In this document: positions 2,480 through 42,331 of the stretch, piece after piece
Layout: every line of letters begins with the position of its first letter
Numbering within the stretch: position 1 is the first letter of the stretch
Source of the DNA: a virus
Lineage: Duplodnaviria > Caudoviricetes
DNA: 42,331 bases
Virus record (IMG/VR): IMGVR_UViG_3300042566_000161
Span: 1-42,331 of that record
Direction: 5' to 3' (one strand)
Notes under the pieces: generated by a model
What the model saw: only the letters and a program-made list of their open reading frames with translations
Database searches by the model: none
Told to the model about the DNA's origin: nothing
Position numbers and translations under genes: made by a program

Positions 2480-3193
2480 ATGAACACGATCCAGATCAAG
2501 TACCGTTATTCGGGTGCCATCCTGTACTCGGGCGTCCATGCGACCATCGCCGCCGCGCTCACCGCCGCAGTGGCGGGCGGCGCGGACCTGTCCGGCGCGG
2601 ACCTGCGCCGCGCGAACCTGTCCGGCGCGGACCTGCGCCGCGCGTACCTGACCGGCGCGGACCTGTCCGGCGCGAACCTGTCCGGCGCGGACCTGCGCCG
2701 CGCGGACCTGTCCGGCGCGAACCTGCGCCGCGCGGACCTGCGCCGCGCGAACCTGTCCGGCGCGGACCTGCGCCGCGCGGACCTGTCCGGCGCGCTCAAC
2801 CTGACCGAATCGGAAGGCTGGGACTCGGTGTACGCCGAGAGTCGCATCCTGCCCGACGAGGGCGACATCATCGGGTTCAAGAAGGTATGGGCGAAGGACC
2901 ACGAAGGCGACAAGTGCGTGCCCGCCATCGCCAAGCTCCGCATCCCGGGCACTGCCAAGCGCAGCCATGCCTTTGGCCGCAAGTGCCGGGCAGCCGAGGC
3001 AGAGGTGCTGGAACTCGTGACGCTGGACGGGTGGTCCGCCGAAGTCGCGTACTCCTCGCACGACGACAGCTTCGAGTACAAGGTGGGCGAGACCGTGCGC
3101 CCGCAGTACGAGTTCGACACGGAGTGGATGGACGAGTGCCGTTCGGGCATCCACTTCTTCATCACCCGCAAGGAAGCCGAGAACTACTACTAA
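2480..3193 (+). CDS. Pentapeptide-repeat protein with C-terminal DUF5758-like domain (237 aa)
   Basis: RBS GGAG; 14 A(D/N)Lxx repeats; C-terminal KCRA...ECRSGIHFF motifs. Confidence 0.9.
2582..2791 (+). repeat. 14 x 15-bp coding tandem repeat
   Basis: Units GCG(G/A/T)ACCTG followed by TCCGGC, CGCCGC or (once) ACCGGC, counted directly. Confidence 0.95.
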
Positions 3194-22356: not shown

Positions 22357-23355
22357 ATGAGCACCATCTTCCCGGCAACCCCGGTCAACCAGAAACAGAT
22401 CAACCAGTCCGGTCCGCTGAACGCGCTCCAGATCGAGCAGTTCACCGGCGAGGTCGAGCACACCTTCGAGGTCCGCTCGGCGCTCGACAAGTTCTTCCCG
22501 ACCAAGCCGGTCAAGGGCACGAACACGCTGACCAAGAAGGCCATCGGCAAGACCAAGCTCCAGAAGCTGGAGCGCGGCAACGCGCCGGACGGCACGCACG
22601 TCGATTTCTCGAAGGCGTCCGTGACCGTGGACACCACGATCCTGTCGCGCCACGTCATCGACGACATCGAGACGATCCAGACCGACATGGACGTGCGCAA
22701 GGAAATCGCCATCGAGCAGGGCATCGAACTGGCGAAGTTCAAGGATCGCGCCATCAGCATCATCGCGGCCAAGGCTGCGGCGTACACCAACTCGGCGTAC
22801 TTCGCCAACGGCAAGAACCCCGAAGGCCACTTCGGGGCGACGCAGGTCACGTTCGCCGCTGCGGGCGACGATGCCGACCCGGCCAAGCTGTACGCCAAGA
22901 TCGGCGAGCTGCTCGCCAAAATGGAAGAGAAGGACGTGGACGTGCGCAACAGCGGCCTGATCCTGATCGTCCGTCCCAAGGTCTTCTACACGCTCCAGCA
23001 GGCCGAGCAGATCGTCAACGGCGACTACATCACCAGCGAAGGCAACAAGCTGTCGGGCATCCCGGTCTTCAAGGCGTGGGGCATCCCGGTGGTCTCGACG
23101 ACCAACCTGCCGAACACCGTCGTCACCGGCCACTTCATGTCCAACGCGGACAACGGCAACGCCTACGACGGCGACTTCACCAAGCTGGTCGTGCTCGCGG
23201 TGGCCCCGAAGGCCCTGATGATCGGCGAGACCAAGCCGCTCACCACCGACATCTGGTGGGACAAGGGCGCGAAGTGCTGGTTCACCGATGCGTGGTTCGC
23301 CTTCGGCGTCGCTGCGGATCGCGTCGAGTACGCGGGTCGCATCAACCTGCCGTAA
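22357..23355 (+). CDS. Major capsid protein
   Basis: RBS AAGGAG; LQIEQFTGEV, VTVDT, D..AI; strongest codon bias; T7 gp10-like position. Confidence 0.95.
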   Translation: MSTIFPATPVNQKQINQSGPLNALQIEQFTGEVEHTFEVRSALDKFFPTKPVKGTNTLTKKAIGKTKLQKLERGNAPDGTHVDFSKASVTVDTTILSRHVIDDIETIQTDMDVRKEIAIEQGIELAKFKDRAISIIAAKAAAYTNSAYFANGKNPEGHFGATQVTFAAAGDDADPAKLYAKIGELLAKMEEKDVDVRNSGLILIVRPKVFYTLQQAEQIVNGDYITSEGNKLSGIPVFKAWGIPVVSTTNLPNTVVTGHFMSNADNGNAYDGDFTKLVVLAVAPKALMIGETKPLTTDIWWDKGAKCWFTDAWFAFGVAADRVEYAGRINLP

Positions 23356-38557: not shown

Positions 38558-38828
38558 GGCCGAACTCGCCGGACTGCACGTCCTCGTGGCAAAGGTGTTG
38601 AAGGAGCGCATCGCGAACGCGGAACTCTGCACCGCAGCAGACATCAACGCGGCGATCAAGTTCCTCAAGGACAACACGATCACCTGCTCCGTGGACAAGG
38701 ACAACCACCTTGGCGAACTGGAAGCCCAGCTTGCGGAGACGAAGGCGTTGAGCACCGGCGTCGGTGCGAGCGATGCTGACCTACAGGCCGCGCTGGACTC
38801 GATCCCGTTCATGGGGGCACCGAACTGA
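38538..38828 (+). CDS. terS: Terminase small subunit
   Basis: ASEAELAGLH, AAIKFLKDN.IT motifs. Confidence 0.9.
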   Translation: MTKAASEAELAGLHVLVAKVLKERIANAELCTAADINAAIKFLKDNTITCSVDKDNHLGELEAQLAETKALSTGVGASDADLQAALDSIPFMGAPN

Positions 38829-40612
38829 TGCGCGGCTACGCAGGTCCGAACTCACTCCGAATGCAGAAGCTGCGCGTTCTGCAAAAGCACTACGCCCAGT
38901 TCGCCGTCTTCCTCAAGGATATGATGGCGGTGTTGGGGTTCGCCCCGACGTGGATGCAGTACGACATCGGGAACTACCTCCAGTTCGGGCCTGCGGACCT
39001 CATGGTGCAGGCTCAGCGCGGCGAGGCCAAGTCCACTATCACCGCGATCTTCGCGGTCTGGTGCCTGATCCACGACCCCGACCACCGAGTCCTGATCGTG
39101 TCCGCAGGCGGCAAGCAGGCGAACGAGATCGCAACGCTGGTGCAGCGACTGATCCTTACGGTGCCTGCGCTGGAATGTCTCAAGCCCGACCGAAACGCGG
39201 GCGACCGTACCTCGGTCGAGGCGTTCGACGTGCATCACGAGCTGCGACAGGAACTCAAGTCCCCGGCAGTGGCGTGTATCGGCATCGGAGGCAACCTCCC
39301 GGGTAAGCGAGCAGACCTCATCATCGCGGACGACATCGAAAGCCCGAAGAACTCCGCCAACGCAACGGCCCGCGAGCAACTTCTGGCGCTCAGCCGCGAG
39401 TTCTCTGCTATTGCCACCGGACGACCCGGCGTCCCTGCTCGAATCATCTACCTCGGGACTCCGCAGACCAGCGAGAGCATCTACAACACGCTTCCGGGGC
39501 GCGGTTTCGCGCTGCGCATCTGGCCCGGTCGGTTCCCGACTCCAAAGGAAATGTCGAACTACGGAGAGCATCTGGCCCCGAGCATCGCAAACAGGCTGGA
39601 ATCCGACCCGTCCCTCGCCTTTGGTGGAGGCCCGCTTGGCGACATGGGACAACCCACGGACCCGGCGCTGTTCGACGAAGAGAAGCTCCTCGCGAAGCAG
39701 CGCAAAGAAGGTCTGTCGTACTTCCTGCTCCAGTACATGCTATCCACGAAGCTCTCGGACTCCCAGCGGTTCCCGCTCAAGACCGAGAACCTAATCGTGA
39801 TGAAGGTAGGCGGGCGTATGCCTTTGACCGTCACGCGAGGCTTCGGCGGCGGCGCGGCGCGCACGTTCACGTCGAGCGGCAAGGGCTTCACGATGATGGG
39901 GCCGCACGAAGTCAGCCCCGAGACGGCGGAGTTCCAAGGCATCCACATGCGGGTGGATCCGGCGGGTGGCGGCGTCAACGCGGACGAGAGCGGCTATGCC
40001 GTGACTGCGTTCCTCAACGGGACCGTGTACGTTCTCGCCGTTGGCGGCGTGCCGGGCGGCTACGAAATGCCGCAGCTCGAAGCCCTCGCGGACATCGCGC
40101 TCAAGTGGAAGCCGAACGTCATCAGCATCGAGAAGAACATGGGCCATGGCGCATTCGCCAAGGTGTGGCTCCCGGTGCTGCGTAAGAAGTACGCCGTCGC
40201 TGCCATCGACGAGCCGTTCGAGAGCGGGCAGAAGGAGGCTCGCATCATCGGCATCCTCGAACCAATCATGGGACGAGGCTCCCTCGTCATCAGCGAGGAC
40301 TGCGTGGAGGAGGACGACCGCACGACCGAGGGCTACGACCCGGCGAAGCGGAGCACGTACTCCGTGTTCTTCCAGTTGTCCAAGCTCACGCGAGAACGCA
40401 AATCCCTCAAGCACGACGACCGGCTGGACGCCCTCGCAGGCTCCGTCGGCTACTGGGCGGCGCAGCTTGCGCTCGACCAGAACAAGGCGGTCGCTAAGGC
40501 CGAAAACCAGAAGTGGGTCGAGTGGTTCCGCAACCCCACGGGGAGGCGAACTGCGGAGGACTACCGAGGACCGGGCCGACGCGGCAACGTCCTGAGCAAG
40601 TATTTCCAATAA
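38828..40612 (+). CDS. terL: Terminase large subunit
   Basis: AQRGEAKS (Walker A), IIADDIE (Walker B), LGTPQ, DPAGGG...DE, HDDRLDA. Confidence 0.97.
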   Translation: MRGYAGPNSLRMQKLRVLQKHYAQFAVFLKDMMAVLGFAPTWMQYDIGNYLQFGPADLMVQAQRGEAKSTITAIFAVWCLIHDPDHRVLIVSAGGKQANEIATLVQRLILTVPALECLKPDRNAGDRTSVEAFDVHHELRQELKSPAVACIGIGGNLPGKRADLIIADDIESPKNSANATAREQLLALSREFSAIATGRPGVPARIIYLGTPQTSESIYNTLPGRGFALRIWPGRFPTPKEMSNYGEHLAPSIANRLESDPSLAFGGGPLGDMGQPTDPALFDEEKLLAKQRKEGLSYFLLQYMLSTKLSDSQRFPLKTENLIVMKVGGRMPLTVTRGFGGGAARTFTSSGKGFTMMGPHEVSPETAEFQGIHMRVDPAGGGVNADESGYAVTAFLNGTVYVLAVGGVPGGYEMPQLEALADIALKWKPNVISIEKNMGHGAFAKVWLPVLRKKYAVAAIDEPFESGQKEARIIGILEPIMGRGSLVISEDCVEEDDRTTEGYDPAKRSTYSVFFQLSKLTRERKSLKHDDRLDALAGSVGYWAAQLALDQNKAVAKAENQKWVEWFRNPTGRRTAEDYRGPGRRGNVLSKYFQ

Positions 40613-40627
40613 CCCGAAGGAGTATCC

Positions 40628-40852
40628 ATGCGTAAGAGCGACTTTTCCAACTACACCGGCCTGTACGGTCGCGGTGCCGGTCTCGGCAACGCTGAGGCGG
40701 TCCTTGGCGGCGTCGATGGCAGCCTGCACGCGCGCCACGTCGGCGTTGAACAGCGTTTCGAGCTGTGCAGCGGTTTGCGGATACTGCTCCGCGTGCTCGA
40801 CGAGGGCGAGGAGTTCGCGGGCCAGCTCGGCACCGGCGAGGTGGCTTCCTAA
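40628..40852 (+). CDS. Hypothetical protein (74 aa) whose central 148 bp appear inverted
   Basis: RBS AAGGAG; stop overlaps the endolysin ATG; inverted repeats CGGTGCCG (40672-40679) and CGGCACCG (40828-40835). Confidence 0.75.
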   Translation: MRKSDFSNYTGLYGRGAGLGNAEAVLGGVDGSLHARHVGVEQRFELCSGLRILLRVLDEGEEFAGQLGTGEVAS

Positions 40853-41379
40853 TGAACGTGAGCAAGCGCGTAATGGGTGCGCTGCTCGCTCTGGCCGTAG
40901 CGGGAGGTGGGGCAACCTACCTCTCGTTTGGCGGGGCGGAGCAGATCGCCGAGCATGAGGGCTACCGCCTCGTTGCCTACCCGGACCCGGGAACCGGCGG
41001 AGAGCCGTGGACCATCTGTCGTGGGCATACCCGTGGCGTGTACCGTGGGATGCGAGCCACTCCGGAGCAGTGCGACCTCTGGTACGCACAGGACTTGTTG
41101 GAGGCCGAACTGGTCGTCCAGCGAGCCGTGCGCGTCCCGATGAAGCAGGGCGAGTACGACGCTGCGACTTCCTTCGTCTTCAACGTGGGCGGTCCGAAGT
41201 TCCGTGCGTCCACGTTGCTCCGCAAGCTCAACGCCGGGGACCGCAAGGGTAGCTGCAACGAGTACCCGAAGTGGAAGTACGCCAACAAGAAGGTGCTCAA
41301 GGGCCTCGTGGTCCGCCGCACCGAAGAACAGGCCATGTGTCTGAGGAGTGGTCCGTATGTCTATCGGCCGTCAAGCTGA
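40852..41379 (+). CDS. SAR endolysin (GH24 lysozyme)
   Basis: Gly/Ala-rich N-terminal TM after a basic tip; HEG...YPD...WTICRGHT; SFVFNVG, STLLRKLN, GLVVRR..E. Confidence 0.93.
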   Translation: MNVSKRVMGALLALAVAGGGATYLSFGGAEQIAEHEGYRLVAYPDPGTGGEPWTICRGHTRGVYRGMRATPEQCDLWYAQDLLEAELVVQRAVRVPMKQGEYDAATSFVFNVGGPKFRASTLLRKLNAGDRKGSCNEYPKWKYANKKVLKGLVVRRTEEQAMCLRSGPYVYRPSS

Positions 41380-41665
41380 GCTGGTGCTCGGCGCGATCCT
41401 GCTCGTCGTGGTCCTGATCTTCGGTGGGCGCTACGCCTACATGAAGTGGAACACCGAGCGCCTCGAATCCAAGAACGACGTGCTGACTTCCGACGCCGAA
41501 GCCGACAAGGTGTATGTCCGGGAGTACAAAACCGTCGTCGAACAACGGGAAACCAAAGATGCGCAAGTCGAACGTGCTCTCCAGCGCAATCGGAGCTGGG
41601 CTGACGAGCCTCTGCCTGATGATGTCGCTGACCTCCTGCGTGACCCTGCCGAGTCCGCCCCCTGA
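41357..41665 (+). CDS. Rz: i-spanin
   Basis: RBS GAGGAG; N-terminal TM, coiled coil, WADEPLPDDV motif. Confidence 0.88.
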   Translation: MSIGRQAELVLGAILLVVVLIFGGRYAYMKWNTERLESKNDVLTSDAEADKVYVREYKTVVEQRETKDAQVERALQRNRSWADEPLPDDVADLLRDPAESAP

Positions 41666-41855
41666 GTACCTGCGGGACTGCAAGATCACGTACCTCAAGG
41701 CCGAGAATCCCACGAATGGCGACGCAGTTCGCCTCGCGGTGGCCCGGGAATACGATCTCAAGTTCTGCAACGCCGACAAGGCGGCGATTCGGGCGTGGTA
41801 CGACGGCTACGAGAAGGCTTGCGGGTGGCGATGTAGGCAACGCAAGCCGCGATAA
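41559..41855 (+). CDS. Rz1: o-spanin lipoprotein
   Basis: Overlaps Rz in the +1 frame; lipobox LTSC; Pro-rich; CN.DKAAIR.W. Confidence 0.85.
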   Translation: MRKSNVLSSAIGAGLTSLCLMMSLTSCVTLPSPPPEYLRDCKITYLKAENPTNGDAVRLAVAREYDLKFCNADKAAIRAWYDGYEKACGWRCRQRKPR

Positions 41856-41863
41856 GCGAGCTG

Positions 41864-41912
41864 GGCCGGGCTATCTGGTGACTACTGGGTAGCTCGGGCC
41901 AAATTTTGCTTT
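41864..41912 (+). terminator. Possible terminator after the lysis cassette
   Basis: GGCCGGGCTATCT/GGGTAGCTCGGGCC stem followed by AAATTTTGCTTT (atypical U-tract). Confidence 0.4.
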
Positions 41913-42103
41913 GCTAACGCGAGAGGGTCACTCCAATAAAAGCTCACGCGCATTCCCCCGTACACCCACCCACGCACCCGCGCACGCACACGGGCATGCA
42001 CACGCGCTCGCCACGCACACACGCGCGCGATCCGAGCCTTACGCGATGCGAGGTGTTATACCTGACCAGCACACCATGACACTACAGCACTATGACACTA
42101 GTT

Positions 42104-42122: not shown

Positions 42123-42151
42123 TTGACGGGAGGTCCGGGCCGTGCTCCAAT
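42123..42151 (+). promoter_or_regulatory. sigma70 promoter straddling the start of the right DTR
   Basis: TTGACG-17 nt-TCCAAT with extended TG, followed by ggccACAC like the other early promoters. Confidence 0.6.
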
Positions 42152-42331
42152 GGCCACACGGTAGGCGCTGAGCCTGCCGGAGCGGGCCTACACGGGCCGT
42201 CCGCGAGCCGCATGGGTGCTACCATGGGCGGAGACGGTGCAAGGCGTAGGCGCGAGCGTGGGCGGCATCTGTATCGTTTGCGCCCGCTGAACTGGTGTGC
42301 TGGTGTACTAACACACCTCGATTGAATTGGT
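42128..42331. repeat. Right direct terminal repeat (204 bp)
   Basis: Copy of 1-204 with one mismatch. Confidence 0.97.

Follow-up and report, generated by a model that had tools for sequence, protein, structure and literature searches.

Judged from homology and not from the repeats, a genuine inversion lies inside one gene of the window, i.e., the whole stretch of viral DNA analyzed here (42,331 bp, a viral record that is 98% complete). We consider it quite probable that the 148-bp core of a Prado gp48-type gene was inverted between 8-bp repeats by a single accident without any recombinase, and that this accident destroys a predicted homodimeric accessory protein while the lysis genes are left intact.

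The inverted core and its un-inverted relatives

The window phage encodes a T7-type RNA polymerase together with portal, capsid, tail, and terminase genes, and its closest cultured relatives are the Pradovirus-like phages of Xanthomonas, Xylella, and Stenotrophomonas, with a DNA identity of 73–77%. A near-clonal relative of the window phage is the contig G001, in which only 1 of 2,095 upstream bases and 2 of the 2,525 bases compared at the start of the genome are unlike the window. The gene with the inversion sits between the genes for the terminase large subunit (TerL) and the endolysin, and the features of this region are as follows.

38828..40612, plus strand: TerL, the 5′ neighbor of the scrambled gene (Pfam PF22530; TerL in relatives)
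40628..40852, plus strand: 74-aa open reading frame as written, a remnant of a Prado gp48-type gene (PHROG 15619) with a recoded middle; PHROG 15619 matches residues 1–19 only
40628..40679, plus strand: first 17 native codons, with no difference from G001 (family profile match 1–19, E 3.5e-7)
40672..40679, plus strand: left repeat arm, ordinary coding DNA that is also present in the un-inverted G001
40680..40827, minus strand: inverted core, the ancestral codons 18–67 (family profile positions 16–72, E 1.8e-25)
40828..40835, plus strand: right repeat arm, missing in G001 and in a further seven relatives
40836..40852, plus strand: tail homologous to the 3′ end of a lost 61-aa neighbor gene
40838–40843, plus strand: Shine-Dalgarno-like GAGGTG, 8 nt before the endolysin ATG and, from its position, a putative ribosome site
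40852..41379, plus strand: endolysin (lysozyme, PF00959; SAR type according to the annotation of relatives), intact
41357..41855, plus strand: i-spanin and overlapping o-spanin (PF23793), intact
40680..41918: putatively exchanged tract, about 5% divergent from G001 with near-identical flanks, its left edge being the left arm
40878..41028: tract polymorphic in two metagenome runs, X2 and X4; in X2, all 15 variants are the bases of G001

The first-pass annotation of this DNA had proposed that the flipped form is the ancestral one, and this proposal holds, since the reversed core forms the middle of a conserved gene of the Prado gp48 type, which stands un-inverted in G001. Indeed, when reverse-complemented, the core aligns with Prado, DoCa2, DoCa4, DoCa9, and SB5 at 80–84%, in each case on the same strand as the endolysin of that relative and within Prado_48 or its homologue, and it is 97% identical to G001. 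The segment is collinear with the relatives only when reversed, whereas the flanks are collinear as written; in the same way, the family profile is split in the window, with positions 1–19 on the plus strand and positions 16–72 on the minus strand, and a profile search of the genome found no second copy of the gene. All of the 34 phage records (29 distinct phages) with the intact domain in tblastn run unbroken from residue 1 to residues 40–45, i.e., across the left breakpoint, and all of the 14 members in the 90% cluster of the G001 protein are un-inverted. Together with the first 17 codons, the reversed core is a clear member of PHROG 15619, a family that includes the Ig-bearing forms of DoCa4 and SB5 and Ponderosa gp51, all likewise encoded between TerL and endolysin; all the PHROG 15619 relatives found keep the N-terminal domain, which is scrambled in the window only.

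When homologs of the as-written protein were sought, the only one among three candidates was the protein itself, which forms a one-member cluster represented by four contigs. The inversion is thus confined to one lineage, namely a single sequence, with no inverted case in the 34 records and the 14 cluster members. Further close relatives were searched for by scanning viral contigs with DNA patterns, which returned only G001 and three cultured phages, and by scanning metagenomes, which returned one relative, un-inverted and Ig-bearing. Scanning the viral contigs with proteins contributed nothing beyond Prado, partial matches to the endolysin, and matches to the Ig domain, and one match in a genome scan was rejected as a chance hit to an unrelated, ABC-permease-like protein.

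Repeats, reading frames, and orientation in the lake metagenomes

The repeat itself was described correctly in the first-pass annotation: CGGTGCCG occupies positions 40672–40679, and its reverse complement positions 40828–40835, with 148 bp in between. The extension of this repeat that had also been proposed is obtained only when a one-base gap is allowed; without a gap, the very first base on either side is already a mismatch. Translation reproduced a protein of 74 aa in either orientation with the start and stop unchanged, and the coupling to the endolysin is kept as well, the TAA at 40850–52 overlapping the ATG at 40852. Two in-frame products are nonetheless unremarkable, because an inversion leaves the length unchanged and because the antisense register is usually open. 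As the earlier reading had suspected, the latter is common in this genome: among 7,741 windows of 49 codons, 6,680 (86%) have no stop in this register, since TTA, CTA, and TCA occur only 0, 12, and 21 times, respectively, in 8,525 codons, and the antisense codons of the core coincide exactly with the old codon positions. The persistence of a 74-aa frame is hence a matter of arithmetic and base composition, and the two products do not indicate design.

Neither are the codons of the as-written core atypical, as had been claimed. Its codon adaptation index (CAI) is 0.66, compared with 0.72 ± 0.10 for real genes in a comparison based on 16 genes, and 47 of 168 real windows of 48 codons score at or below it; the ancestral frame of the core scores 0.75. 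Also, 338 overlapping pairs of inverted 8-mers are found genome-wide at distances of 50–300 bp. Among 101 coding windows of 225 nt, nine contain a perfect repeat of 8 bp or longer whose arms are 100 bp or more apart, and in four the frame stays open upon flipping. The repeat and the open frame are by themselves weak evidence of inversion. No promoter or terminator was found inside the segment, and folding of the DNA at 40660–40850 gave a z of −2.2 with the arms unpaired with each other in both the best and the centroid structures. As a side effect, the inversion opens the endolysin frame upstream to a GTG at 40765 (40765–40851), from which gene callers could report a 204-aa product.

The orientation was then examined in four (X1–X4) of the 24 listed metagenome runs as assembled contigs, which drop rare variants; X3 was released in 2020 and the other runs in 2024, and all four may belong to one lake campaign. 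The remaining runs, X5–X24, contain 19–60% of the sequence words and do not enter the evidence. Contigs cross the right junction in the as-written orientation in all four runs and the left junction in three of them, X4 having no cover there, and no strand-changing joint occurs among the contig pieces shown from the four runs. With the junctions as written in the contigs of four runs, and the flipped form in none of them, the inversion can be put down neither to a faulty assembly nor to any visible switching. The suspicion of an assembly artefact does have some basis, in that the window is a metagenome assembly and X1 and X2 may be its source; the chance of such an artefact is nevertheless close to negligible, given that X3, which is not flagged as a source, spans both junctions as written, that X4 spans the right one, and that the overlaps between contigs, at 30 bases, exceed an 8-bp repeat in length.

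A reversible, phase-variable switch, i.e., an intragenic inverton flipped by a host invertase, would make sense of perfect 8-bp repeats and of two forms in frame, and its rare second form could be missed by contigs. Bacterial intragenic invertons that recode proteins do exist (Chanin et al., PMC10028968) and resemble the present case in an inversion lying wholly within a gene, in inverted repeats, and in a partly recoded protein; those invertons were, however, defined there by reads of both orientations and ascribed to invertases, whereas the window has one orientation, unconserved arms, and no recombinase, in a lytic phage. The absence of a recombinase was noted already in the first pass and was reproduced by a six-frame search, in which PF00589 and PF00239 found no tyrosine integrase or resolvase in the one window genome (0 of 1) while recovering 14 of 14 and 12 of 14 controls; likewise, no integrase or resolvase was found among the 44 open reading frames scanned. 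As for the conservation of the repeats, G001 has the left arm as part of its ordinary coding DNA, and the right arm is missing from G001 and seven further relatives, so that the pair was not kept as a recombination site in any of the eight relatives examined. The flipped short protein is absent from the 14 cluster members and from 27 clusters, one of the two states would lack the invariant residues of the family, and 8-bp repeats are, as counted above, common here. Phase variation, one of the options in the first-pass annotation, is therefore left unsupported and appears very improbable; unconserved repeats together with a single fixed orientation are instead what that annotation had associated with a one-off event. 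Should both orientations be found in reads, the locus would represent a phase switch in a lytic phage that has no recombinase of its own.

The inverted lineage is likely to replicate and to exchange DNA with G001-like phages, because, within one run, the inversion is common to two endolysin haplotypes. In X2, namely, the right junction lies on a single contig (depth 9.8), and this contig overlaps with either of two alternatives, which cover 40848–41058 at depths of 6.5 and 4.3. All of the 15 variant bases in the second haplotype equal G001, yet the base of the window at 40851 is retained, and both haplotypes appear to carry the inversion. The same endolysin variants are found in X4.

The accessory protein and its Ig-like domain

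The family of the scrambled gene is characterized by an N-terminal domain of 60–65 aa, often followed by an Ig-like domain, and is encoded between TerL and endolysin. It comprises at least 30 clusters at 50% identity, of which 28 are full-length small or Ig-type proteins and two are weak long matches. The domain is normally useful, we suppose, because it is intact in every relative found, a point that weighs against the reading below that the phage does without it. AlphaFold models the intact domain as a two-helix hairpin (residues 16–32 and 34–64/68) with a pLDDT of 87.5. When a natural relative, P0038, was modeled as a homodimer, the score was 0.71, compared with 0.01 for the best of three controls; the mark for this score is reached by 20 of 30 solved homodimers and by 1 of 23 single chains. 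The contacts agreed by 100% between runs, and the pLDDT was at least 85. This score supports the binding of P0038 as a predicted homodimer, and 35 of its 45 predicted interface residues lie at or after residue 18, i.e., in the part that is recoded in the window.

The as-written protein lacks R21, E22, and P34, which are three of the six invariant columns in 38 sequences, and also lacks six of the 11 near-invariant residues. Because the flip removes half of the invariant columns and most of the predicted interface, it is likely to be a knockout of the accessory protein, the recoded product being predicted not to form the helical-hairpin dimer. The phage would be viable without the intact protein, because the right breakpoint falls just 5′ of the putative endolysin ribosome site, the inversion ending 2 bases before GAGGTG, and because the allele resides in a recombining population. 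This natural knockout suggests that a small family kept by all the other Pradovirus-like phages found here is dispensable. It also illustrates that a GC-rich gene can be inverted with neither a stop nor an effect on the downstream lysis genes and that gene callers report a normal-looking orphan protein after such an inversion.

Besides the core, the window has lost more than was described in the first-pass annotation, which missed both the Ig domain and a neighboring small gene. The allele in G001 is an un-inverted protein of 146 aa, of which residues 1–63 match the PHROG 15619 profile (E 2.3e-29) and the C-terminal part is a Big_2 (Ig-like) domain (E 1.2e-15); Big_2 is not detected in the window. 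A gene for a 61-aa protein follows next to the Ig gene in G001, and the last codons of the open reading frame in the window are the 3′ end of this second gene. Between the shared flanks, 555 bases in G001 correspond to 154 bases in the window, i.e., a net loss of 401 bp, by which the Ig domain and the neighboring gene are both gone. The 61-aa gene (L005:1941-2126) belongs to no assigned family, with nine close alleles and no hit in Pfam, PHROG, or the cultured phages; its candidacy as a paralogue found no support, the hhalign probability being 2.7.

The Ig part is frequently lost in the relatives while the N-terminal domain is retained, as judged from short alleles, deletions, and a frameshift. 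Among the 14 members in the cluster of the G001 protein, 10 are long with Ig and four are short (P0038, P0041, P0042, and P0020; 69–77 aa) and have different tails, and more deletions and a frameshift within the Ig part are seen in P0007, P0015, P0059, and SB5. In the Stenotrophomonas phage SB5 (L003:1142-1608), a frameshift of one base in the Ig domain relative to DoCa4 has led to the annotation of two genes. The Xylella phage Cota (L029:479-879) has two small genes in the same slot, which by eye may be distant members of the hairpin family.

The lost protein likely sits on the virion surface, and it is the fusion to Big_2 that points to this role. Ig domains are listed in tail, head, and decoration proteins in a review (PMC7602432), where T4 Hoc, T5 pb10, and N4 gp17 are described to add little to the stability of the capsid. 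These Ig-bearing virion proteins are like the present family in combining a conserved anchor-like domain with a variable Ig-like domain, but differ in that no link in sequence or fold was found for the hairpin, Big_2 alone being matched. Indeed, a PDB sequence search with the hairpin gave no match, and Foldseek and VIA-align gave nothing specific (best Z 5.4, generic helical pairs only). Matches in the ESM Atlas (0.77 and 0.75) serve as leads only, and the best viral match of the whole model is Ponderosa gp51 in the same slot. Our search of the literature, largely open-access main texts, returned no study of the Prado gp48 family or of such an inversion in Pradovirus-like phages. In the major capsid protein of the window (22357–23355), positions 13 and 111 differ from all of the 11 other cluster members, and position 330 differs from 10 of the 11; these differences would become relevant if the lost protein binds the capsid.

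Age and route of the inversion

The inversion event is recent, so far as the core shows no sign of decay. In comparison with G001, only four codons of the core differ: two of the changes are silent when read in the ancestral frame, one is V48, and one falls at the junction; V48 is a standing allele common to other strains. The identity to G001 drops from 99.95% to about 95–98% exactly at the left arm, and the tract of about 1.2 kb that begins there (40680–41918; L027:2096-3740 in the comparison with G001) is about 5% divergent and covers the accessory gene and the whole lysis cassette. From this pattern of identity, the tract is best read as an exchange of the lysis module between otherwise near-identical genomes. 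The TerL and spanin alleles do not decide the direction of the exchange with G001. Homologous exchange may have stopped at the end of collinearity, or else a switch between two strains may have given rise to the inversion.

The accident would have proceeded by microhomology recombination or by a template switch of the polymerase, and two steps are favored, namely a short allele first and the inversion second, given that V48 and a similar tail are found in natural short alleles (P0041). Relatives have repeatedly lost the Ig part while keeping a short tail before the endolysin, and a short allele of this kind, with a chance repeat of 8 bp or nearly so, would then have been inverted once. A short un-inverted precursor was not found among the relatives scanned. 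The events described for template switching or microhomology (Ripley-type quasi-palindromes; PMC8604942) are alike in short arms, no recombinase, a kept frame, and a spacer inverted within coding DNA, with an arm possibly perfected by the event. Their yeast coding cases differ from ours, however, in spacers of 2–5 bp, compared with the spacer of 148 bp, the 401-bp loss, and the edge of an exchanged tract in the window.

The same work bears on a one-step route, in which a single template-switching event, maybe between two co-infecting strains, made both the deletion and the inversion; the event itself would then have made the right arm by copying the left arm in inverted form, and no flipped 74-aa protein would ever have existed. 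This route, which is compatible with a knockout, we regard as possible but clearly the less probable of the two. It would account for the absence of the right arm from G001 and for the step in identity falling exactly at the left arm, and intermolecular template switching has been described (PMC8604942) as inverting spacers and perfecting arms. The yeast spacers of that article are nonetheless far shorter than the one here, and natural short alleles do exist, with V48 shared with the inverted core in three of the four; the tail of P0041, moreover, resembles the flipped reading in length and make-up. The step in identity can also be explained with no coupling of the two events, since the boundary of an inversion halts homologous exchange as well, and a crossover within 50–100 bp would go unmarked with a probability of 0.07–0.35 for 52 bp.

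While the single accident in two steps is thus preferred, the allele might have been spread by selection, if the loss of a surface protein or a new antisense-coded product gave an advantage such as escape from an interaction with a host or the environment. The as-written form is indeed the only one in the contigs of the four runs (2020 and 2024 releases) and stands on two haplotypes; the repeated loss of the Ig part in the family and the translatable codons of the recoded segment would also be in line with selection. We regard this explanation as rather unlikely, however, because a clonal bloom or drift would look alike and G001 has the same backbone with an intact locus; a single sequence whose product has no relatives gives no measurable signal of selection. 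Less likely still is the birth of a gene, in which a one-step template switch between two strains made an antisense-coded segment of 50 residues under a ready-made start and coupling, after which either this novel product or the absence of the dimer was favored and drove a selective sweep in a wild population of the lytic phage. Should the recoded product turn out to be expressed and under selection, this would provide a dated example of the birth of a protein from the antisense strand.

Several observations were also made outside the lysis region. An early gene at 2480–3193 encodes pentapeptide repeats and a DUF5758 domain. The window ends in a terminal direct repeat of 204 bp (1–204 and 42128–42331) with one mismatch, and the sequence of G001 continues through the terminal repeat into the genome start. 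Ahead of this repeat are low-complexity repeats of the CACGCAC type at 41960–42030, where G001 has one additional 12-bp unit at 41989, and an imperfect inverted repeat of 28 bp pairs 42049–42076 with 42293–42320.
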